DNA from: a virus
Lineage: Duplodnaviria; Caudoviricetes
IMG/VR virus record: IMGVR_UViG_3300029288_000120
Location: 29,209-93,208 of that record
DNA: 64,000 bases
Strand: one strand, 5' to 3'
The notes beneath the pieces are model-generated. The model did not search any database. It was not told the DNA's origin and worked only from the letters and a program-made list of their open reading frames with translations. Shown in pieces: positions 2,414 through 52,363 of the stretch. The translations under genes were made by a program, and so were the position numbers. Position 1 is the stretch's first letter. The number at the start of each line of letters is the position of its first letter.

Positions 2414-3484
2414 ATGGGTAAATGTGTGTATCAAGGAGAAGGCACAGAAACAATTCTTTCGGAATGTTTTCTAAAACAAACATGCAATAGAGAGGAAGAA
2501 GCTGAGTGCAAAGAAAGGCTTGAAATAGGAGATGCTAAGTTTCTTCAAAATTGGAAGGATCCTCTTGTTGTCCTCGATAGAAGTAAAAATCCCACAACAG
2601 CAATCAGAAACTTACTTGCTGGGGGACCAGCCTTCCTTGTAGGGGGAGGGCCATCGACAAAAACACAGCCATTAGAATTACTAAACAACCGGGGTATTTT
2701 TTCTTTGGCAGTAAACAATTCAGCAGCCCATCCGAGATTCCGAGCATCTGCTTTTGTATGTTCAGATCCTCCCTTGAAGTTTTCTAACTCCATATGGTTT
2801 GATCCTCATGTAATGAAGTTTGTGCCCTCCCCCAAAATGTCAGGTAACAGAGAGCGGCTAAGGGAGAAACGAAATGGTATCTTCGAACGCTCAAAGAAAA
2901 AGGTAACAGATAGTCCCAATATATGGGGATTCAAGAGATTGAGCTGGTTATGGCCTGACGAAAGGTTCTTTCTACAGGATGGTGCTTGCTGGGGAAACCA
3001 TGATGTAGGAGTAGTTAAAACCAAGGAATCTAAGACAGTTTGTACCTTACTTTTGGGTTTGAGATTACTATACTTTCTTGGAGCGAGAACTATATTTCTG
3101 GTGGGTGTGGACTTTCTTATGAAACCCGATGGGGTGTACTCCTTTGACCAGAACAAAAGTGTAGGAGGATGTGAGTCAAACAACCGACAATTTGAAGTAG
3201 TAAACGGTTGGCTTTGTAGAATGGAAAGTAATGGGGTATTTGGAAAGTTTGGATTGAAGATTTTCAACTGTTACGAGAATAGTGGTTTGCGTGCATTTCC
3301 ATACGTGCCTTTTGATACTGCTATCGAAATAGCCACAAAGGATGTAGAGCAGAAACCTGACTTATCTGGATGGTATGAAAAAGGAAAATGTGATGCTTGT
3401 GGATCTGAGCATCTAAAATGGGGAGAAGAGGTTGAGTGTTTGGATTGTGGGGAAGTCGTAAAGATTTTCAAGATTATCGACTGA
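2414..3484 (+). CDS. Maf/MptE-like (sialyltransferase-like) glycosyltransferase-fold protein
   Basis: FLVGGGPS, LAVNN, FVCSD and LGARTIFLVGVDF motifs; C-terminal Zn ribbon. Confidence 0.55.
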   Translation: MGKCVYQGEGTETILSECFLKQTCNREEEAECKERLEIGDAKFLQNWKDPLVVLDRSKNPTTAIRNLLAGGPAFLVGGGPSTKTQPLELLNNRGIFSLAVNNSAAHPRFRASAFVCSDPPLKFSNSIWFDPHVMKFVPSPKMSGNRERLREKRNGIFERSKKKVTDSPNIWGFKRLSWLWPDERFFLQDGACWGNHDVGVVKTKESKTVCTLLLGLRLLYFLGARTIFLVGVDFLMKPDGVYSFDQNKSVGGCESNNRQFEVVNGWLCRMESNGVFGKFGLKIFNCYENSGLRAFPYVPFDTAIEIATKDVEQKPDLSGWYEKGKCDACGSEHLKWGEEVECLDCGEVVKIFKIID

Positions 3485-3567: not shown

Positions 3568-4032
3568 ATGAGAAAAATGAAGAACATGCAGAAAGTTGAT
3601 TACCGGCCGTTTGTTGTTAATTGGTTGTCTTGTGAGGAGAAGTTACCTACAGAAGGCAAAACTCTATTCTTTACAGATGGTAAGTATATCTGGTTGGGCA
3701 AAAGATGTGTTGATGACTTCGGTGACAGTATATGGCATCGGTGTGAGCTTGTTCCCATCTGGAGTATAAGAAATGAAGTGTGGGAATCAGAATGTAGTCT
3801 TGCTATAAAGACTCCTACACACTGGGGTGGGTTACCAACAATTCCACAGAAGAGAGAATTTTCAAAACACTCTGCCAAGGCTTTCCAAGTTGCTTTCTTT
3901 GTTTTGCTTCTCTGTGGATTCTTTATACTGGGTTTTCGCAATGTGCTGCACTTGGGAGACATTGTACCGGTAGTTTCCATTGCCATCAGTTCCTTCTTTC
4001 TTGGACATTTATCAGAACATGACAACATTTAG
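3568..4032 (+). CDS. DUF551-like protein with C-terminal transmembrane helices
   Basis: WLSCEEKLP...PTHWGGLP motif pair, then two hydrophobic segments. Confidence 0.5.
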   Translation: MRKMKNMQKVDYRPFVVNWLSCEEKLPTEGKTLFFTDGKYIWLGKRCVDDFGDSIWHRCELVPIWSIRNEVWESECSLAIKTPTHWGGLPTIPQKREFSKHSAKAFQVAFFVLLLCGFFILGFRNVLHLGDIVPVVSIAISSFFLGHLSEHDNI

Positions 4033-4049
4033 CAAGGGAAAGAACTGAT

Positions 4050-4427
4050 ATGCTACCAACGCACAATATACCGCCCATCGGTCCCAGGCAAGGAAAAGTG
4101 TGGGGAAAGACACAGTTAGTATTTGCCCATAATTCTACTGAGACGCATATAATAGAAGCAAAGGCTGGTTACAAGTGCAGTTGTCACAGTCACCAGTATA
4201 AATGGAATCGTTTTGTTGTCATCTCTGGGCGCCTAGCAATCCGCTTGTACCAGGATGAGAACTCAATAGACGAAACAATACTGGGGCCTTGGCAGGTTAC
4301 CGATGTACCACCTGGTACCAAGCATACATTTGAAGCTATGGAGGATACAGTGGCAATTGAAGTCTATTGGGTAACACTTGATGCCCAAGACATAGATCGT
4401 CATGGTACAGTTGGAGGAAAAGTATAA
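4050..4427 (+). CDS. cupin-fold protein (sugar isomerase-like)
   Basis: HSHQYKWNRFVVISG...VPPGTKHTFEA cupin motifs. Confidence 0.7.
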   Translation: MLPTHNIPPIGPRQGKVWGKTQLVFAHNSTETHIIEAKAGYKCSCHSHQYKWNRFVVISGRLAIRLYQDENSIDETILGPWQVTDVPPGTKHTFEAMEDTVAIEVYWVTLDAQDIDRHGTVGGKV

Positions 4428-4544
4428 TGGAACTGAGAGAAGCTTTCTATAAATTCAATTCATACAGTCCTGAAATACAGGAGTCCATAAGCAGAAAGGT
4501 TGTTTCTTTCCAGGTTCCATGAACTATTTGATTGAAAGTGACTG

Positions 4545-5324
4545 ATGTTTACTGACTATACAATTGTCTGTGGTGTTGATAAAAAACACCTAAATCAACT
4601 TCGTTGGGTCTACCCCACCTGGATCAAGAGCAAGCCATCTCTATTGAAGCAACCCATGTTGTTGTTCTACGACCAGAAACAACTAACTTATGGGGAGGTC
4701 AGTCAAGAAATCAACCACCCTGATATAACCATTGTGCCTTGGCCTCCTGGGGAGGTAGTATATGAGGGTATATCTGATGATAAATGGTATGATCCCCAGA
4801 GATACAAAATGCTGGCCGGGTTTGTTCACGTTCCTCACCAACACATAGCTACCAATTACTGGCTGAAGTTAGACACAGATACAGTTGCTACTGGTCAGGA
4901 TGATTGGATTGATGAAAGTTGGTTTGAGAGTGGTCCCGCTATAGTGTCTCAGCCATGGTCATTTACAAAACCAGCTAATCAGATGTTACTGCTTGATGGC
5001 TGGTTGTGTTTACACCCTTCTTTGAAAAACCTAACACCGCTAAATTTGGTTCCAAAAGAAGGTTCTGATAGACTAGGACACAAGAGGATCATAAGTTGGT
5101 GTGGATTTTTTAAGAGGACATTTACCGAGCATTGTTCTCAGTGTGCTATGTTTTTTGGTGAACCAAAACTTCCTGTTCCCTCACAAGATGGGTATATGTG
5201 GTATATGGCACAAGTGATGGGAATGGAAGTTAAAAGAGTACAGATGAAAAGTAGGGGATGGGAGCATTGGACAACTGATTGGAATATACGTTCTGCTGTA
5301 GAAAGGGTTATGTATGGCAAGTAA
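4545..5324 (+). CDS. putative GT-A glycosyltransferase
   Basis: YWLKLDTD DxD motif; located in the glycan cluster. Confidence 0.5.
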   Translation: MFTDYTIVCGVDKKHLNQLRWVYPTWIKSKPSLLKQPMLLFYDQKQLTYGEVSQEINHPDITIVPWPPGEVVYEGISDDKWYDPQRYKMLAGFVHVPHQHIATNYWLKLDTDTVATGQDDWIDESWFESGPAIVSQPWSFTKPANQMLLLDGWLCLHPSLKNLTPLNLVPKEGSDRLGHKRIISWCGFFKRTFTEHCSQCAMFFGEPKLPVPSQDGYMWYMAQVMGMEVKRVQMKSRGWEHWTTDWNIRSAVERVMYGK

Positions 5325-6009
5325 GTTACTAAGGCGTTCAGGTGTAGCCGTTGGTCTTGTTCTGGACCAACTACAATGGATACCAGATTTGGTTGTACAA
5401 GTGGGTATTGGTTTTTTCCATGAGGAATGTGATGTACTTCATCAAGAATGGCCTAATACCAAATTCATCGGTTTTGAAGCTCATCCCGACATTGCTTCCA
5501 AGGTAAAGGATTACCCAGGGCAACTGATTAGCAAGGCTGTTGGTAATAGATGTGGAAGGGCTTTACTTAATTCTAAGTCGAAGCACAAGGATGGCTCCTC
5601 TTTCTACGAGTTCAAAGAAGACATAGATTCTATCAAAGAGATAGAAATAGATGTTATAACACTGGATTCGATCATCAACCATGAAGAGGTTGATAATGTG
5701 CTTCTCTGGTTGGATTGTGAAGGCTCCGAACTGAATGCTTTGTTTGGTGCTTCTTATCTGTTACAAAAGGTAAAAGCAATCAACGTCGAAATGACTGCTA
5801 ATCCTCCTAGTCTTTACTGGCCTAGTACAATAGAAGTACACAACTATTTGAAGGATCTAGGATTCTTTAGGCAATGGATACATACACTTCGTGGGGGGCA
5901 ATATGACGCTATCTACGTTAGAAAGGAAATCTTCAAACCAGAGTATTGTTGTTGTCCTTATACAATAGTAGAGTTCCAAAATAGAAACGGAAGGAAAGCA
6001 CTTTTATGA
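5314..6009 (+). CDS. FkbM-family methyltransferase
   Basis: FIGFEAHP, VITLDS and LWLDCEGSEL motifs. Confidence 0.75.
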   Translation: MASKLLRRSGVAVGLVLDQLQWIPDLVVQVGIGFFHEECDVLHQEWPNTKFIGFEAHPDIASKVKDYPGQLISKAVGNRCGRALLNSKSKHKDGSSFYEFKEDIDSIKEIEIDVITLDSIINHEEVDNVLLWLDCEGSELNALFGASYLLQKVKAINVEMTANPPSLYWPSTIEVHNYLKDLGFFRQWIHTLRGGQYDAIYVRKEIFKPEYCCCPYTIVEFQNRNGRKALL

Positions 6010-6950
6010 GAAGTGAGAGAATCTTTTATCTGATGTCTGGTGCTGCTCATTTACCATATCTTATTTGCTCCTTACATACACTGAGAGATCATTATGATGG
6101 GGAGGTATTTGTGTATGCTTGGTCAGAATCCATTGACATTGTGGAGCAGATAGCCAAGGATCCCAGGTTAAAGATAGAACCCAGGTACAGAGAGCCAGCT
6201 CATAAATTGAAGAATGCCCAGTTCATGGACAAAATACAATTGGCATGGGATCAGCAAGATGCTGTACGTAGAGTACTCTACTTGGATGCTGACACAACCA
6301 TACATGGGAGGCTCGATAGACTGTTCGTAGAGGCGAAGAAGGAAGGATTTGCAGCTACGCAGTTCTGTGATTGGAAAAGCAATCATGGAATTCCCTTGCG
6401 AAGGATAGTGAAGTTGAAAAACTATCGGGGAATTAACCAAGCTGCTGTGGATAGTTGTTGCAATAACCCTTGGCCTAGCGTAAACGGGGGTGTATGGGCA
6501 GCTGATACTTCCAGTGAAGTACTAACACTATGGTACAAGTGGACAAAGGTTGCTCAAAGCGAGTTCATTGCTGATGAAGTAGTACTACACACTCTGGTAC
6601 CCATATTCTTTGAAGATGGAATGTCAATTGTGGGCAGTATGGGTGAATACAACACCAGTCCCAAGTTTCAATGCAAAGACTTGCCAGATGATGAAGTTGT
6701 AGTATATCATTTTCATGGGGACAGTAATGTCAGACCAGACAAGACAGAGAAAGGATTCAACCTGTGGTGGCCTCTCTACAAGCATTGTTTGGAGGCGAAC
6801 ATCGGCAGGATGGCTGATTGGATAGATAAGATTGATAACAAGTGGATGAAACCTTTACAAGAAAGAGACAAAGAAAATGAGAGAAATGGACTTACAGAAC
6901 AGAAGCCAATACCAGTTCACCCGGAATTGGTTCCTGAACAGAAACCTTGA
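6006..6950 (+). CDS. putative GT8-like glycosyltransferase
   Basis: VLYLDADT DxD, VNGGVW, ADE and YHFHG motifs. Confidence 0.6.
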   Translation: MRSERIFYLMSGAAHLPYLICSLHTLRDHYDGEVFVYAWSESIDIVEQIAKDPRLKIEPRYREPAHKLKNAQFMDKIQLAWDQQDAVRRVLYLDADTTIHGRLDRLFVEAKKEGFAATQFCDWKSNHGIPLRRIVKLKNYRGINQAAVDSCCNNPWPSVNGGVWAADTSSEVLTLWYKWTKVAQSEFIADEVVLHTLVPIFFEDGMSIVGSMGEYNTSPKFQCKDLPDDEVVVYHFHGDSNVRPDKTEKGFNLWWPLYKHCLEANIGRMADWIDKIDNKWMKPLQERDKENERNGLTEQKPIPVHPELVPEQKP

Positions 6951-9153: not shown

Positions 9154-9908
9154 GAAGAACAATTATGAGAGTAGATTTCGTTACACATTGCTATGCAAAG
9201 CAGTTTCCCCACTTTGCTGCTGCCTTGTACTTACAGTTATCGACAATATGCAATCAGGTTTCAACCAAGCACCAAGCAAGTATTACTGTTTTCTATTGTG
9301 AGGAAGATAGACATACTTGCAATGTTTTGAATCTATTTAGTGATAGCAAAAGAACAAAGTCAGCTACTTTGGCTTGTGTTCCTATGAGAGTAGAGAATCT
9401 AGGAAGGAGATCAATAGGAAGAAACTTTGCAGCAGAAAATACCAGTGCTGATTATGTATGGTTTACCGATGTAGATTATTGGTTTGATGCAAATGTAGTC
9501 GATGATTTGTGTACTATGCAGTGGCCGAAAGATGCTGTAATGGTATTCCCTCAAAATATCAATATCAGCAAGACGCACGAACTTGGTGACAAATTACTAA
9601 AGTACTATGCAGGAGTTTATGAAGGTACTACTGGTTCTGTTCCTTACACACCAAATCTACAGGTGAGGGACTATTGTGATAAAACCTACTACAAAGCCAT
9701 TGGTGGCGTACAAATCGTTAAAGGATCATTTGCTACAGAGAATGGTTATGTGCGTGGAGGTAAATGGCAGATACCCTCCACCAAGCCATTCGGGGACTTC
9801 AAGGATGACATAGCATACCGAAATGCTTGTCGTCTGTTAGGAAAAATAGTACCAGTTGAATTGAAAGGTGTCTACCGTATAAGACATACGGAGACAAGTT
9901 ATCAGTGA
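9147..9908 (+). CDS. GT2-like glycosyltransferase
   Basis: RSIGRNFAA...DYVWFTDVDYWF; likely start at MRVDF (9165). Confidence 0.65.
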   Translation: MVGRTIMRVDFVTHCYAKQFPHFAAALYLQLSTICNQVSTKHQASITVFYCEEDRHTCNVLNLFSDSKRTKSATLACVPMRVENLGRRSIGRNFAAENTSADYVWFTDVDYWFDANVVDDLCTMQWPKDAVMVFPQNINISKTHELGDKLLKYYAGVYEGTTGSVPYTPNLQVRDYCDKTYYKAIGGVQIVKGSFATENGYVRGGKWQIPSTKPFGDFKDDIAYRNACRLLGKIVPVELKGVYRIRHTETSYQ

Positions 9909-10579
9909 GATATCTTAGTGAGTCAAAAGCATTGATTCTACATATACCCAGGACAGGGGGAACATGGGTAGAAAAAGCAATACAACTCTGTAATATAGAG
10001 TCTAGTCGATGGGTATCAAAACAACCAAACAACTTACCTAAGAAGCATTGTTTGTTGCCTCACATTGCACGCAGGCATGTTTCTGATATAGATTTTGTTG
10101 CTGCGTTTGTAAGACATCCCATTCCGTATTATGAATCTGTTTGGAAATGGATGAGTAAAACAACTCGAAGTCATATACTGCGAAAGAGATGGACTTGGCA
10201 TCCTCATAAGTGTGCTATTGATGTCTTCAAAAAGAACAAGGATTTCAATGAATGGGTATATAATATGTCTGAGAAACATCCTGGATGGTATTCCAGGATG
10301 GTCAAGATGTATGTAGGACCTCAGGGAGGAGAGTTTTGTGGGTATATTGGTAGAACAGAATCCCTTGTTGATGATTTCTTGGAATTGCTTACTGGTTTGG
10401 GTTATAAACAACATATGGCAATAGAGAATGAAATAAGAGCGATGGCTGTACCCAATTCTATAGAAGCAAAGATAAACTGGTGTGGGGAGTTAAAGGGTAA
10501 AGTATTGGAACAAGAGCATCAAGTTATCGAAAGATTTTATAGAGGGGAAAATTTACATCGAAGATGCTATACACTTTGA
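9905..10579 (+). CDS. sulfotransferase family protein
   Basis: ILHIPRTGGTWV (PAPS 5'-PSB loop), FVRHP and IGRTESL motifs. Confidence 0.75.
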   Translation: MRYLSESKALILHIPRTGGTWVEKAIQLCNIESSRWVSKQPNNLPKKHCLLPHIARRHVSDIDFVAAFVRHPIPYYESVWKWMSKTTRSHILRKRWTWHPHKCAIDVFKKNKDFNEWVYNMSEKHPGWYSRMVKMYVGPQGGEFCGYIGRTESLVDDFLELLTGLGYKQHMAIENEIRAMAVPNSIEAKINWCGELKGKVLEQEHQVIERFYRGENLHRRCYTL

Positions 10580-10594
10580 TATTGGATTGTAAAA

Positions 10595-10867
10595 ATGGGT
10601 GAGCTAACTAGCGTAAAGTACAACAAAATTCTTCTATCTTATGCTGAGTTGCGAAAGGTATTTGGATCTCGTCTTGCTTCAATAAGAAAGAACCGGGGAT
10701 GGACGCAGGAGGTACTGGCATCCAAGTTTGGCACCACCCAAGAAACCATTGCTATATGGGAAGGCAACAAGCAACTCCCCTCACGAAAGAACGTAGACAA
10801 ACTCTGCAAACTCTTGCACATTGACAGGTTCTTTTTCGAACGTGTTGAATCTAATGTGCTTAAATAG
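10595..10867 (+). CDS. XRE-family HTH transcriptional regulator
   Basis: IRKNRGWTQEVLA...TQETIAIWEGNKQLP. Confidence 0.85.
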   Translation: MGELTSVKYNKILLSYAELRKVFGSRLASIRKNRGWTQEVLASKFGTTQETIAIWEGNKQLPSRKNVDKLCKLLHIDRFFFERVESNVLK

Positions 10868-10985: not shown

Positions 10986-11014
10986 TGGACAGTTATATGG
11001 TTTTGACACATAAT
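10986..11014 (+). promoter_or_regulatory. putative early sigma70-type promoter
   Basis: TGGACA-N17-CATAAT with AT-rich upstream tracts. Confidence 0.45.
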
Positions 11015-11020
11015 GATAAC

Positions 11021-11404
11021 ATCATTGATGTTTGAAATCCTGAAAGGCAGCCGATTGGCAAGGAGTATTTTGCATAGCCCATTTGAGTCCGAGCGGAGTT
11101 AGGGTATGCAAAAGAAAGAACCGGAAATGACCGGGCAAGGGGAAGTTAGTAACGAACGTGAAAACTCCCATTCGCAGTCGATTGGCTCCCAGCCTAACAA
11201 AGCAGGTTTCACCAGGAACCATGAACAATGAGCCTGGTCCCCCTGAGATCAACAGTAGTTGCTAGGGTGAGTTGAAGCTGAGCAGTGGAGGGTTGGTGAC
11301 ACAAGAGTGTCACTTTCAAACAAAGGATAGTTGTGGTCGACTAACACGGGAATGATTCGATCATAATTGAGCACAGTGGGTAAGCAGTAGCAAGAATCGA
11401 AACA
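11021..11404 (+). ncRNA. putative structured non-coding RNA/leader of unknown class
   Basis: No credible ORF; stems TTTTGCATA/TATGCAAAA, ACCAGG/CCTGGT and GTGACAC/GTGTCAC. Confidence 0.4.
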
Positions 11405-11481
11405 GTCGAAACAATCCCAGTCGAACGACAGAGTGGATTGTTCACTGTAACTGGCTATTACAGTGCTGATGAGACAAGCCA
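11405..11481 (+). ncRNA. hammerhead ribozyme, type II, with loop I pseudoknot
   Basis: GAAA 11408-11411; stem III CAATCC/GGATTG; GUU triplet; stem I CACTGTAA/TTACAGTG; CTGATGA 11466-11472; stem II GTC/GAC; loop TGGCT pairs with 3' AGCCA. Confidence 0.85.
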
Positions 11482-11511
11482 AGCAAACTCTTATTTTAGG
11501 AGAGAAGAACA

Positions 11512-12174
11512 ATGTTAGATTTAGTAGTGGGACAAAAAGTCATTTATATTCCACATTATGGTGAAATGCCAAGAATAGCAACGATTACTAAGGTGTTGAA
11601 AACACGTTTCGAAATCAAGGATGAGAATGGCATAATCAAAACAAGATTTGAAGTGAATAGCTGTGGAGTGGATGGGCAAACATTTTACGCATATGGAACT
11701 AGAAAGAGCGGGATGGTTGTTGTTTACACTGAAGAGAACATGAAGAAGTTTACGGAAATGGCCCAACAGGAGATTAGCAGAGAGAAAGAAAAGAAGGAAC
11801 GACAAGAGAAGGCTAGACTTGAACGAGATATCGAACAGAAGAAACAGATTGAGGAAGTAAAAGAACTGTATCTGCCTGATGACTGGAATGAAAGAATTCA
11901 AAATGAGATTCTCCCAGGGGATCAAAAGATGTATGTCATCAATATGCCAATCCATCCACGATATGTGGAAAACAAAGGATCGTGGGAAAGATTAATTGTC
12001 AGAATCAAGAAGGAAGAAAGTTGGAGTTGGCAAAAGGCGGGGATGGCATATATGACGTATACTACTTGGGCAAACGAGAAAAGTCAATCCTTCTCTTCCT
12101 GTACAGGTATCAACTATGAGACAGAGGAGGAGGCATTGTGGGACAGTATTCGTAGATGCTACTTTTCATGGTAA
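11512..12174 (+). CDS. hypothetical early protein
   Basis: AGGAG RBS, 220-aa ORF with central coiled coil. Confidence 0.7.
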   Translation: MLDLVVGQKVIYIPHYGEMPRIATITKVLKTRFEIKDENGIIKTRFEVNSCGVDGQTFYAYGTRKSGMVVVYTEENMKKFTEMAQQEISREKEKKERQEKARLERDIEQKKQIEEVKELYLPDDWNERIQNEILPGDQKMYVINMPIHPRYVENKGSWERLIVRIKKEESWSWQKAGMAYMTYTTWANEKSQSFSSCTGINYETEEEALWDSIRRCYFSW

Positions 12175-14452: not shown

Positions 14453-15934
14453 ATGAATCTAATAGAAAGACTTCGACACGCTCGTCAAGCAGGTGTACCA
14501 CTGGTATCAATTGGTACACCTGATGCAGCGGCTACCATACGTCGTGTGGTTAAAGAGCTCAACAACTCACCCATTCTATCATGGGATGTGCAGAGAGGAG
14601 TTCTATCAGCAAACGAATCTGGTCAAACAGCTCTTGGTCAGATAAATAGTGATGATACCAAGGGGAATCCCCTGGGATTGATTGATGAAGCAATCAAGCT
14701 ACCTGAGAAGACCATGCTCTTCATAATGAATGCTCCAAAAGTTGCAGAAGCCACTGGTCTGCCTTGGATTCAGGGAGTATGGAATCTCAGGGACGAGTTC
14801 AAAGCAGACCAAAGGATGGTGATACTCCTGGGTAGGTCTTCAACAGTTCCCCCTGAGCTGGAAGGGGATGTAGTTTGTATGGAGGAGGAATTGCCAACAG
14901 TAACACAACTCACCAGCATAGTCGATTCATTGGATGATGACGCCTCCCTGGCCAGACCCAAAAGAACACCCACACCAGAAGAAGTAATCAATAAGGCAGT
15001 GGATGCCGTTTCGGGGTTGTCAGCTTTCTCAGCAGAACAAGCTGTAGCAATGGCCATCCGAGCAGATGGCATAGATCTGGACCTTCTCTGGGACATCAAG
15101 CGGACAATGATTGAGGAAACCCCTGGGTTATCTTGTTGGAGAGGGGGGGAAAGATTCTCAGATATTGGTGGACTTAAAAACGTCAAAGGGTACTGCCAGT
15201 CGATGGTCAACGGTCGCAAGAAGTATGGGGCTGTGGTATTCATTGACGAGATTGAGAAGCTATTGGCAGGGGCTACAGAGGGCACTGGGGACAGTTCCGG
15301 TGTAAGCCAGGGTTTCTTACAGGTACTCCTTACGTACATGCAAGACCACAATGTAAGTGGGATGATTTTCATCGGGCATCCAGGGGCCGGCAAATCAATG
15401 GTAGCCAAGAGCATAGGAGCCGAAGTTGGTATACCCACAATTGCCTTGGATGTCAATGCGATGAAGAGTAGTTTGGTAGGTTCAAGTGAGCAACGTATAC
15501 GAGAAGCAATGAAAGTTGTTACAGCAGTAAGTAATGACAAGCCTTTATTCGTTGCCACTTGCAACAAAATTGCAAACCTTCCCCCTGAGTTACGGCGACG
15601 ATTTACTGCTGGTACATTTTTCTTTGACCTCCCAGATTCCTCAGAGAGAGATGTCATTTGGACATACTACATGGAAAAGTATGAGTTGGAAGAACAGGAA
15701 GGTCCACTAGACGAAGGATGGACAGGGGCTGAAATTAAAGCCTGCTGTCAAGGAGCATGGGAACGCAACGTGTCACTCTTGGAAGCAGCCAAGTTCATTG
15801 TTCCAGTAGCCAAGGCTGATCCAGCCAGGATAAAGAAGCTACAAGATGAGGCTGTTGGTCGTTACATATCAGCCTCATCTGATGGAACATACAAAACAGT
15901 AAGCACAGAGAAGAAGAGAGTAGTTCGTACTTGA
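14453..15934 (+). CDS. Ycf46-like AAA+ ATPase (Walker B block placed before Walker A)
   Basis: FSDIGGL, VFIDEIEK, GHPGAGKS, VATCN..LPPELRRRF and FFFDLP motifs. Confidence 0.85.
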   Translation: MNLIERLRHARQAGVPLVSIGTPDAAATIRRVVKELNNSPILSWDVQRGVLSANESGQTALGQINSDDTKGNPLGLIDEAIKLPEKTMLFIMNAPKVAEATGLPWIQGVWNLRDEFKADQRMVILLGRSSTVPPELEGDVVCMEEELPTVTQLTSIVDSLDDDASLARPKRTPTPEEVINKAVDAVSGLSAFSAEQAVAMAIRADGIDLDLLWDIKRTMIEETPGLSCWRGGERFSDIGGLKNVKGYCQSMVNGRKKYGAVVFIDEIEKLLAGATEGTGDSSGVSQGFLQVLLTYMQDHNVSGMIFIGHPGAGKSMVAKSIGAEVGIPTIALDVNAMKSSLVGSSEQRIREAMKVVTAVSNDKPLFVATCNKIANLPPELRRRFTAGTFFFDLPDSSERDVIWTYYMEKYELEEQEGPLDEGWTGAEIKACCQGAWERNVSLLEAAKFIVPVAKADPARIKKLQDEAVGRYISASSDGTYKTVSTEKKRVVRT

Positions 15935-21926: not shown

Positions 21927-23297
21927 ATGAGCGATATAAAACCATTCAAGTTCCAAAAAGAATGTATTGAAGAACTAGAAAGGTTTAACGGCAGGGCTTT
22001 GTTAAGTGCAGATATGGGTCTAGGTAAGACCCTAATGTCCCTGTGGTCTCTGCAGAAGAACCTTAGCAGAGCCCTGCCAATCATTGTTGTTTGCCCCGCA
22101 TCCATAAAATATCAGTGGAGAGGAGAAATATGGAGATGCCTTGAAATAAAGGCGTTCGTAGCAGAGGGCAGGAAGGCCACAAGGAAACAAACAAATCCCA
22201 AGGTTATAGTAATCAACTATGACATTCTTAAAGATTGGTTACCTTGGTTAAGATCTAAGAAACCAGGTTCTGTAATACTGGACGAGTGCCAGTTCATTTC
22301 CAATCACAATACTCTACGCACCAAAGCAGTAAAGGCTCTTTGTCTTGGTGTGAATCATATCATTGCCCTTTCTGGCACACCCATGATGAACCGTCCTATG
22401 GAATTGTTTACAGTACTCAATATCTTGAAACCTGTTACTTTTTCCAGTCGTTGGTCTTACGGAATGAAATACTGTGATGGCAAAAAGAATCGCTGGGGAT
22501 GGGAATTCAAAGGAGCAACACGAGTAGAAGAGTTAAATGACTTATTGTTGAAGACCTGTATGGTACGTAGAAGAAAATCAGAAGTATTGAGTGAGTTACC
22601 CAACAAGATGAGGCAAGTGGTACCGTTCAAGTTGGATAATATATCTGAGTACCAAAATGCCGATGATGATTTTATGGGTTGGTTAGAAAAGAGAGATCCA
22701 GAAGCTGTGTATAGAGCAGAACGAGCACAAACACTTGTGAAGGTTGGGTACTTACTACGACTTGCTGCTGAGTTGAAATTGAAGTATACCATTCAATGGA
22801 TAAACGACTTTCTGGAATCCACTGATAGAAAAATAGTAGTATTCACCAAGCATAGAAATATGCTAGCTGAGTTGAGAAGTGGTATTAAGTATGTGTCTGT
22901 TACAGTTGCTGGGGGTATGAATGCTATCAAGAAGAATCAGGCAGCAAAAGCTTTTCAAACAGATGAGAACATCAGAGTGTTCTTGGGAAATATAGAGGCA
23001 GCAGGAATAGGTTTGAATCTAACAGCAGCATCTGATGTTGTCTTTGCTGAAATGGCTTGGCGACCTACAGATCATACACAAGCTGAAGATCGCTGCCATA
23101 GAATAGGGCAGACAGATACAGTATGGGCACATTATTTGATTGCAGAAGATACAATAGAGGAAAAGCTCTGCAAGATCATCCAGGACAAGCAGAGTGTCAT
23201 TTCTGACATACTGGATGGCAGGAAGATGGAAGGAGACCTGGATGTGTTTGATAGATTGATGAGATCAATTACGAAAGGAAAAGGATTGATAAAATGA
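21927..23297 (+). CDS. SNF2-family (HARP/SMARCAL1-like) helicase
   Basis: ADMGLGKT, VCPAS, ILDECQ, LSGTP, GIGLNLT and QAEDRCHRIGQ motifs. Confidence 0.92.
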   Translation: MSDIKPFKFQKECIEELERFNGRALLSADMGLGKTLMSLWSLQKNLSRALPIIVVCPASIKYQWRGEIWRCLEIKAFVAEGRKATRKQTNPKVIVINYDILKDWLPWLRSKKPGSVILDECQFISNHNTLRTKAVKALCLGVNHIIALSGTPMMNRPMELFTVLNILKPVTFSSRWSYGMKYCDGKKNRWGWEFKGATRVEELNDLLLKTCMVRRRKSEVLSELPNKMRQVVPFKLDNISEYQNADDDFMGWLEKRDPEAVYRAERAQTLVKVGYLLRLAAELKLKYTIQWINDFLESTDRKIVVFTKHRNMLAELRSGIKYVSVTVAGGMNAIKKNQAAKAFQTDENIRVFLGNIEAAGIGLNLTAASDVVFAEMAWRPTDHTQAEDRCHRIGQTDTVWAHYLIAEDTIEEKLCKIIQDKQSVISDILDGRKMEGDLDVFDRLMRSITKGKGLIK

Positions 23298-51694: not shown

Positions 51695-52363
51695 ATGGCC
51701 TGGAGAACGTCAAGTACTCGTAAAAATGTTGCTGTCATTGTTCGCAGACAAGCAGTACGAAATGATTTGCTAAATGGTTTGACTAATCAAATAGCCCTTG
51801 CTGCAAGATATGGAATATCCCAGCAGTCCATTGGTAATGACATATCTGTCATACTGGGAGATATGCGGGAAGAAAACAAACAAGTGGCCAAGGCTGAACT
51901 TTTAATTGCTCTCAGTAGAATGGAGGACAACTATAAAGAAGCCTCCAAAGCTTGGAGGAAGAGCAAAAGAAACAAAGAGGAGGTTGTAACTGATAGAGTA
52001 AAGAAGGTTTGTGTGGCTTGTAGGGGAACAGGAATGAGGAATGCAGATCCAGATACAGAAGAATGGTGTCCTCTGTGTAATGGAGATGGTTTTATCATTC
52101 AGGAAAAGATAACCAGAAGAGTCACAGGTCAAGCAGGAGATCCATCATTTCTGAAAGAGCGACGTGAGTTGATAAAGTTTAGGTGTTTCTTGTTGGGAAT
52201 CCCAGACAAGTCTCCTGATGAGAAACCTATAATAAATATAAATTTTGCTAACATTAGCAACGATAAGATACTAAAGGCATTGAGCGCCATAGAACAATTA
52301 AGGGAAGAAAAGATCAAGGCAGAGGCGATCAATGTCCAGTTCGAAGCAGGAGCTCCAAGCTAA
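51695..52363 (+). CDS. putative terminase small subunit with DnaJ-type Zn finger
   Basis: N-terminal HTH (QIALAARYGISQQSIGNDI), CVACRGTG...CPLCNGDG; directly upstream of TerL. Confidence 0.6.
   Translation: MAWRTSSTRKNVAVIVRRQAVRNDLLNGLTNQIALAARYGISQQSIGNDISVILGDMREENKQVAKAELLIALSRMEDNYKEASKAWRKSKRNKEEVVTDRVKKVCVACRGTGMRNADPDTEEWCPLCNGDGFIIQEKITRRVTGQAGDPSFLKERRELIKFRCFLLGIPDKSPDEKPIININFANISNDKILKALSAIEQLREEKIKAEAINVQFEAGAPS

Follow-up and report, generated by a model that had tools for sequence, protein, structure and literature searches.

The stretch of DNA analysed here (hereafter the window, 64,000 nucleotides) comprises bases 29209–93208 of a 93,208-bp viral contig that is rated complete, and nearly all of its long open reading frames (ORFs) lie on the + strand. 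One of them is a gene for a Cro/CI-type HTH regulator (10595–10867, +), which falls in the transcription-regulator families of PHROG, matches the Pfam families HTH_19 and HTH_3 above their cut-offs and has an orthologue at 54% identity in the related phage L001. It is the last gene before a stretch of 644 nt that holds no credible gene and ends at the ATG at 11512. Along this stretch, on the + strand, lie a sigma-70-like promoter candidate, a long leader, a hammerhead ribozyme motif of type II at 11405–11481 and a Shine-Dalgarno sequence (11499–11504 by direct reading, 7 nt before the ATG) that belongs to the gene at 11512–12174. The genes downstream encode an AAA+ ATPase (14453–15934), helicases, a DnaB-like helicase, a DNA polymerase and SSB, with the terminase following later, at 52332.

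The promoter candidate (10986–11014, +) was found in a consensus scan; it agrees with the consensus at 10 of 12 positions, has a spacer of 17 nt and, judged on count alone, does not reach significance. Promoters close to the sigma-70 consensus occupy the equivalent place, just past the HTH gene, in the sister phages (L001 4104–4133, L115 1529–1556, L003 about 2605–2633 and L116 about 4866–4895), which lends support both to this weaker candidate and to an early operon driven by the host polymerase. The non-coding leader that follows (11021–11404, +, about 385 nt) is the sole long ORF-free stretch nearby and is predicted to be strongly structured, with a minimum free energy of -120.5 kcal/mol and a z-score against shuffled sequences of -3.5 on the + strand versus -1.7 on the - strand, figures with which a repeat of the calculation agreed. 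Neither it nor any of the leaders of the related phages matches an Rfam family. Alignment of the five leaders is poor, with a column identity of 49%, and the z-scores of the sister leaders are mixed (-4.4 in L003, -1.7 in L115 and +0.35 in L116). No terminator was found on the + strand between the promoter candidate and the genes. Given the HTH gene upstream, the promoter candidate, this lack of a terminator and the replication genes downstream, the gene at 11512–12174 can reasonably be regarded as the first of an early/replication operon, and to that extent the sequence-only reading, which had placed the ribozyme in front of the first early gene, was well founded.

The product of this first gene 3' of the ribozyme, which appears in the ORF list as a protein of 220 aa encoded on the + strand, matched no Pfam or PHROG family; back-translated patterns yielded no relatives, and a search of 5.8 billion proteins returned the protein itself and nothing else. 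Its orthologues, in L115 (2535–3293, E 5e-21) and L003 (3266–4117, E 6e-24), surfaced solely through synteny anchored on the ATPase gene. The upstream gene at 9905–10579, when used as the anchor, retrieved the L001 contig alone, and a nucleotide search of the locus against isolated phages gave no match. The C-terminal half of the protein and its orthologues is well conserved, and they share a terminal tryptophan.

Read directly from the sequence between 11200 and 11700, the parts of a type II hammerhead (the core, three helices and a 5-bp pseudoknot) follow one another in the correct order at 11405–11481 on the + strand, and each core element lies where the sequence-only reading had put it. 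We aligned the element to two covariance models, that of Rfam (RF02276, Hammerhead_II) and one of our own, R1, built from a gapless alignment of 26 hammerheads from unrelated viral contigs with the window sequence excluded. The element begins with the 3' strand of stem II (11405–11407, including C11.1), which pairs with the 5' strand at 11473–11475 (including G10.1). Next come G12, A13 and A14 of the core (11408–11410), which by direct reading and in both models fall in invariant columns. Stem III (11411–11441) is a hairpin with a span of 31 nt that consists of 7 bp (11411–11417/11435–11441), an internal loop and an inner hairpin; the inner hairpin had been described as 4 bp long, which would leave a loop of 2 nt, and is in fact a helix of 3 bp (11420–11422/11427–11429) around a loop of 4 nt. 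The nucleotide at the cleavage site, H17, may be any base except G and here is U11442, which both models align to the H17 column, with the predicted cut at 11442/11443. Stem I (11443–11465) is a hairpin of 8 bp (11443–11450/11458–11465) closed by a 7-nt loop (11451–11457), the central 5 nt of which make up one half of the pseudoknot. After stem I come the core heptamer C3 U4 G5 A6 N7 G8 A9 (11466–11472), an exact match to the consensus by direct reading and in the RF02276 and R1 alignments, the 5' strand of stem II, a 1-nt spacer of the kind usual in the family and the 3' tail (11477–11481), which is complementary to loop I at 11452–11456.

Stems I, II and III, of 8, 3 and 7 bp, contain no mismatches, and the pairs that adjoin the core, G11473-C11407 (10.1-11.1), C11443-G11465 (1.1-2.1) and A11411-U11441 (15.1-16.1, the first pair of stem III), are the standard ones; both these pairs and the core positions conform to the rules by which Perreault et al. 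2011 (PMC3088659) accepted hammerheads. [quoted passage not shown] A U at the cleavage site is permitted by the NUH rule (PMC12192606). The assignment to type II on the strength of a short stem II and a loop I pseudoknot, made earlier from the letters alone, thus holds against both the published class (PMC3088659) and the survey of 226 viral examples presented here.

Standard annotation does not recover the element. Run on a local segment of 181 nt, RF02276 aligns it end to end (model positions 1–66) with 32.0 bits and an E value of 4e-5, 5 bits short of the Rfam gathering cut-off of 37 bits. We attribute the low score to the long insert in stem III, the U at position 17 and the A/U-rich stems. 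Because the score lies under the cut-off, Rfam does not report the element in the window at its gathering threshold, and searches of the whole window at E<=1 and of the genome with RF02276 returned nothing because the speed filters dropped it. Routine Rfam annotation overlooks real members of the class in both ways, by its score cut-off and by the speed filters it applies by default. With the filters off, R1 matches 11404–11484 in the 64-kb window with 58.1 bits (E 5e-12), and the runner-up anywhere in the window scores 11.9 bits.

A scan for the loop, core and tail signature gave 108 viral contigs, and a structural descriptor applied to these gave 226 type II hammerheads in 105 contigs, 26 of which supplied the alignment behind R1. 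The descriptor also retrieves the element in the window, with stems of 8, 3 and 7 bp. Hammerhead-like motifs do arise by chance: in its loose form the descriptor finds about 0.46 matches per shuffled genome, and in the real genome two weak matches elsewhere, at window positions 22984–23092 and genome positions 74070–74125, are at this chance level. In its strict form (stem I at least 6 bp, stem II at least 3 bp and stem III at least 5 bp), however, it finds nothing as strong as the element in any of 100 shuffled genomes, and this result, the E value of R1, a loop and tail identical to the family consensus and the presence of an orthologue at the same position in L115 together effectively rule out a chance match, the probability of which we regard as negligible. 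The motif at 11405–11481 lies far beyond chance and its presence is confirmed. There is no second type II copy in the rest of the window by R1 or in the 29 kb of the genome that lie outside it, and the window holds no candidate for a hammerhead of type I or III.

Among the 226 viral examples the loop I and tail motifs of the window recur, and its 7-nt loop I is found in identical form in L006, L008 and L115. Stem II has 3 bp in 162 of the 226. C occupies position 17 in 217 examples, A does so in 5 and U in 4, and the span of stem III is usually 14–18 nt and reaches 41 nt, compared with 31 nt in the window; the element is canonical except for U17 and the long stem III. All four helices covary in the seed alignment, where the pseudoknot shows compensatory changes in 4 of 5 pairs with 98% of cells paired, and since the three stems were demanded by the descriptor that selected the sequences, the covariation of the pseudoknot alone is free of selection.

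The survey also shows where these elements lie with respect to genes. From the end of the tail to the next start codon that has a Shine-Dalgarno sequence ahead of it, the median distance among the 226 is 20 nt (quartiles 16–27), from the previous stop codon to the start of the element it is 2 nt (95th percentile 192), and all copies within any one contig are on a single strand. These positional figures support a role in the punctuation of mRNAs and the definition of their 5' ends, and they fit the proposal of Perreault et al. 2011 that phage transcripts are processed in this way. The element in the window follows the rule on its 3' side, with 29 nt between tail and start codon, and departs far from it on the 5' side, with 537 nt after the last stop codon. 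Multiple copies are frequent, 48 of the 105 loci (viral contigs L004–L111) carrying between 2 and 10 type II hammerheads, and one contig, L087, has five matches to the type I/III core pattern inside about 2 kb.

The related phages, identified through their ATPase genes, show how variable the same locus can be. In L115 (ATPase 73% identical) an HTH gene is followed by a promoter, then by about 460 nt of leader, a type III-like element, a gene of 119 aa and a type II hammerhead (2448–2515), which begins 5 nt past the stop codon of the 119-aa gene and stands directly before the orthologue of the gene at 11512–12174. R1 gives this hammerhead 64 bits and the Rfam model gives it 36.6 bits, and when it is compared with that of the window all three stems have changed on both sides in a compensatory manner while loop I and the tail are identical. 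In L003 (ATPase 70% identical) the promoter is followed by about 410 nt of leader, then by a type III hammerhead (3051–3098), a small ORF and a full-length orthologue of the first gene. The type III elements of L003 (3051–3098) and L115 (about 2024–2070) have a stem II of 1–2 bp and a pseudoknot between loops I and II, with one compensatory change between them, and the copy in L115 was detected neither by Rfam nor by the descriptor, which requires 2 bp in stem II. Each of the two ends the leader of its phage, about 410–460 nt long, just before a ribosome-binding site. Like the element in the window, they belong to the same phage group and operon and stand at the end of the leader just before the ribosome-binding site; unlike it, they have an open stem III and other pseudoknot partners, and they precede a small gene that is absent from the window.

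L116 (ATPase 69% identical, an 89-kb record) carries three hammerheads of type II, each lying between successive early genes, at 5876–5943, 6366–6441 and 9428–9500. All three were found by the covariance model and missed by the exact-core descriptor, and in the copy at 9428 a U replaces A15.1 and the partner base is changed as well. The closest complete relative, L001 (ATPase 81% identical), whose complete genome of 93 kb has terminal repeats, lacks both a type II hammerhead and an orthologue of the downstream gene at 11512–12174, and the absence of the hammerhead there indicates that the element is dispensable in this phage group; a search with R1 found no type II copy in any of L001–L003. 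The nearest cultured phage, Tunturiibacter phage Tunturi_3 (PP885686.1, here L198, ATPase 35% identical), has no match to the type II model and no Rfam match (E<=0.5) within 12 kb of its ATPase gene. Its early region contains an unannotated gap of 1.66 kb (3713–5374) and strikingly regular intergenic gaps of about 60–76 nt.

Across 10 copies in the relatives, pairing holds in 95% of the cells and compensatory changes occur at 15 of 18 pairs, in an alignment that was fitted to the model, so that these counts lean towards structure. The hammerheads of this phage group are real and under selection for structure. They are limited to the first few kb of the early operon, and within it they are readily gained, lost and replaced.

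The element belongs to a described and experimentally validated class of hammerheads that is common in phages and prophages, the pseudoknot-stabilised type II class (PMC3088659, RF02276). It shares with the class its topology, a stem II of 3 bp, the pseudoknot between loop I and tail, the consensus sequence of loop and tail, and a setting in a phage, before a gene and on the coding strand. In contrast to the class it lies 5 bits under the Rfam cut-off, has U17 instead of C and a 31-nt stem III with an inner hairpin, occurs as a single copy, and is preceded by a non-coding stretch of 537 nt instead of beginning 0–13 nt past a stop codon. Self-cleavage has been shown for members of the class both in vitro and in vivo, and they adjoin phage-like and HTH genes (PMC3088659, PMC8782182). 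Among them, the three of Desulfovibrio vulgaris (loc 1-3), analysed by cyPhyRNA-seq, cleave in vivo and during transcription in vitro (PMC8782182). These are of type II like that of the window and adjoin phage-like genes and an HTH gene, although their setting is a bacterial chromosome or prophage; the minimal fragments measure 29–32 nt and 39 nt, and the 5' part of the element in the window is longer owing to its stem III, a comparison that concerns lengths and not the sequences themselves.

Prophage transcripts with several hammerheads have been described in Agrobacterium tumefaciens, in the triple arrangement at ardA, and in Azorhizobium caulinodans, and Perreault et al. 2011 propose that long phage transcripts are cut by them to mRNAs the length of a gene or an operon (PMC3088659). 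There, as in the window, the ribozyme lies immediately upstream of a gene and the proposed role is the same, and the three copies between consecutive genes in L116 resemble these arrays. The window differs from the arrays in having a single ribozyme, at the boundary between a leader and a first gene and not between two genes. A different parallel is found in insulators of the RiboJ type, in which a hammerhead in the 5' UTR strips off variable upstream RNA and leaves a message with a 5'-OH, a leading hairpin and a fixed leader ahead of the ribosome-binding site; they were engineered from a hammerhead of plant satellite RNA and are unrelated by descent to the phage element.

We consider it very probable that 11405–11481 is a functional, pseudoknot-stabilised type II hammerhead in the 5' UTR of the early/replication operon, which would cut between U11442 and C11443 and so take a long leader off the message, a task usual for RNAs of this kind. 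Transcription from the promoter near 10986–11014, or read-through from the upstream genes, would put the ribozyme in the 5' untranslated region of the message, where the three stems would form, together with the pseudoknot that joins loop I to the tail, and bring about self-cleavage between these two nucleotides. The upstream product would be a structured leader of about 420 nt with the stem III hairpin at its end and a 2',3'-cyclic phosphate. The downstream product would be an mRNA with a 5'-hydroxyl and the 8-bp hairpin of stem I flush at its 5' end, followed by the ribosome-binding site of the gene at 11512–12174 within a 5' UTR that, with the predicted cut at 11442/11443, measures 69 nt up to the ATG. 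The likely effect would be to uncouple the message from the upstream RNA and to provide it with a defined 5' end that a hairpin protects, and removal of the strongly folded leader would place the ribosome-binding site in a fixed context. In bacterial mRNA decay, a hairpin at the 5' terminus and a non-phosphorylated 5' end both hinder attack by RNases that depend on the 5' end. The analysis establishes the anatomy of the element, the family to which it belongs, its conservation with compensatory changes and its place with respect to genes; for the window itself we infer the cleavage after U11442, the boundaries of the transcripts and any effect on mRNA stability or translation.

The main doubts about the functional reading concern U17 and a competing hairpin, and the length of stem III, double the usual, and the sub-threshold Rfam score also count against it. 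When the 81-nt element is folded in isolation its minimum-energy structure is the hammerhead fold, at -19.7 kcal/mol with the pseudoknot uncounted. With a few extra bases upstream, an alternative long hairpin of about 11402–11448 is predicted, which covers the cleavage site and half of stem I and, again with the pseudoknot uncounted, is favoured over the hammerhead fold by about 4 kcal/mol. Positions 11397–11412 hold a near-duplicate, just upstream, of the core-like segment. It permits this long hairpin and also creates another hammerhead register, a weaker one with 2 bp in stem II and 6 bp in stem III. The duplicate and the hairpin could be a folding trap, a switch or a product of chance. We also considered whether the duplicate could be the scar of a deleted type III hammerhead and small gene, as found in L115, and rejected this because no other remnant of a type III core lies upstream.

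These features bear on readings other than that of a working mRNA-processing ribozyme. It is improbable, though the doubts just listed lend it some colour, that the element is a decaying or very slow hammerhead, derived from an active one and no longer usefully cleaving. Hammerheads cleave more slowly with U than with C at the site, and the rarity of U17 in the family, the insert in the 31-nt stem III, the predicted competing hairpin, the score under the Rfam cut-off and the patchy presence among relatives would all suit such decay. Against this, the core positions, the core-adjacent pairs, the 5-bp pseudoknot and the 1-nt spacer are all intact, stems of 8 and 7 bp free of mismatches are not expected in a decaying element, U17 obeys the NUH rule (PMC12192606), and the length of stem III is the least constrained feature of the family. 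If the two mutually exclusive folds, of similar predicted energy, were instead states of a switch, with cleavage conditional on a factor or on the speed of transcription that sets the hairpin at 11402–11448 and the duplicate at 11397–11412, then the second register, which uses the upstream copy of the duplicated segment, would find a use, and regulated hammerheads have been raised as a possibility by Perreault et al. (PMC3088659). Yet alternative folds this large are common by chance, no recognisable ligand-binding element or protein site is present, and the alternative fold is not seen to be conserved, L115 having a stop codon 5 nt upstream instead; we regard conditional cleavage as less probable still than decay.

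A larger share of the remaining probability, still well short of an even chance, falls to the view that the main job of the ribozyme lies on its 5' side, where it would generate the 3' terminus of a separate, structured non-coding RNA of about 420 nt (promoter to cut site). This RNA, produced very early during infection, would be the functional product, and the trimming of the mRNA would be secondary. Here the leader of the window, which folds better than shuffled sequences on the + strand only, the unusually good fold of the L003 leader and the gap from stop codon to ribozyme, so far outside the family norm, all point the same way, as does the order of promoter, leader and hammerhead, there of type III, that L003 and L115 share with the window. 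The poor alignment of the five leaders, the lack of an Rfam family for that of the window and the lack of a fold signal in L115 and L116 point the other way; moreover, the leaders of L001 and L116 end without a hammerhead, and the tight spacing to the downstream start codon throughout the family indicates the mRNA side. A broader form of the same view, which we hold to be similarly doubtful, is that in this phage group the hammerhead, of type III in L003 and L115 and of type II here, answers one and the same need as a module for 3'-end formation in a non-coding RNA of about 400 nt that is structured, promoter-proximal and produced at the very outset of the early operon. If this were true, selection would act on the cut at the boundary of leader and mRNA and on the released RNA, and not on a particular ribozyme.

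Thousands of such elements are already known, and for that reason the one in the window adds little to the catalogue. The modest additions made here are the positional statistics, the finding that leaders of sister phages can end at equivalent places in an element of either type II or type III, and the evidence that routine Rfam annotation misses this element. The purpose of bacterial and phage hammerheads is still unproven (PMC3088659), and the locus presents a clean natural test case, with one ribozyme at a defined boundary, where a structured promoter-proximal leader meets the first gene of the replication operon, and with close relatives in which this ribozyme recurs, is replaced by another permutation, is present several times or is absent.
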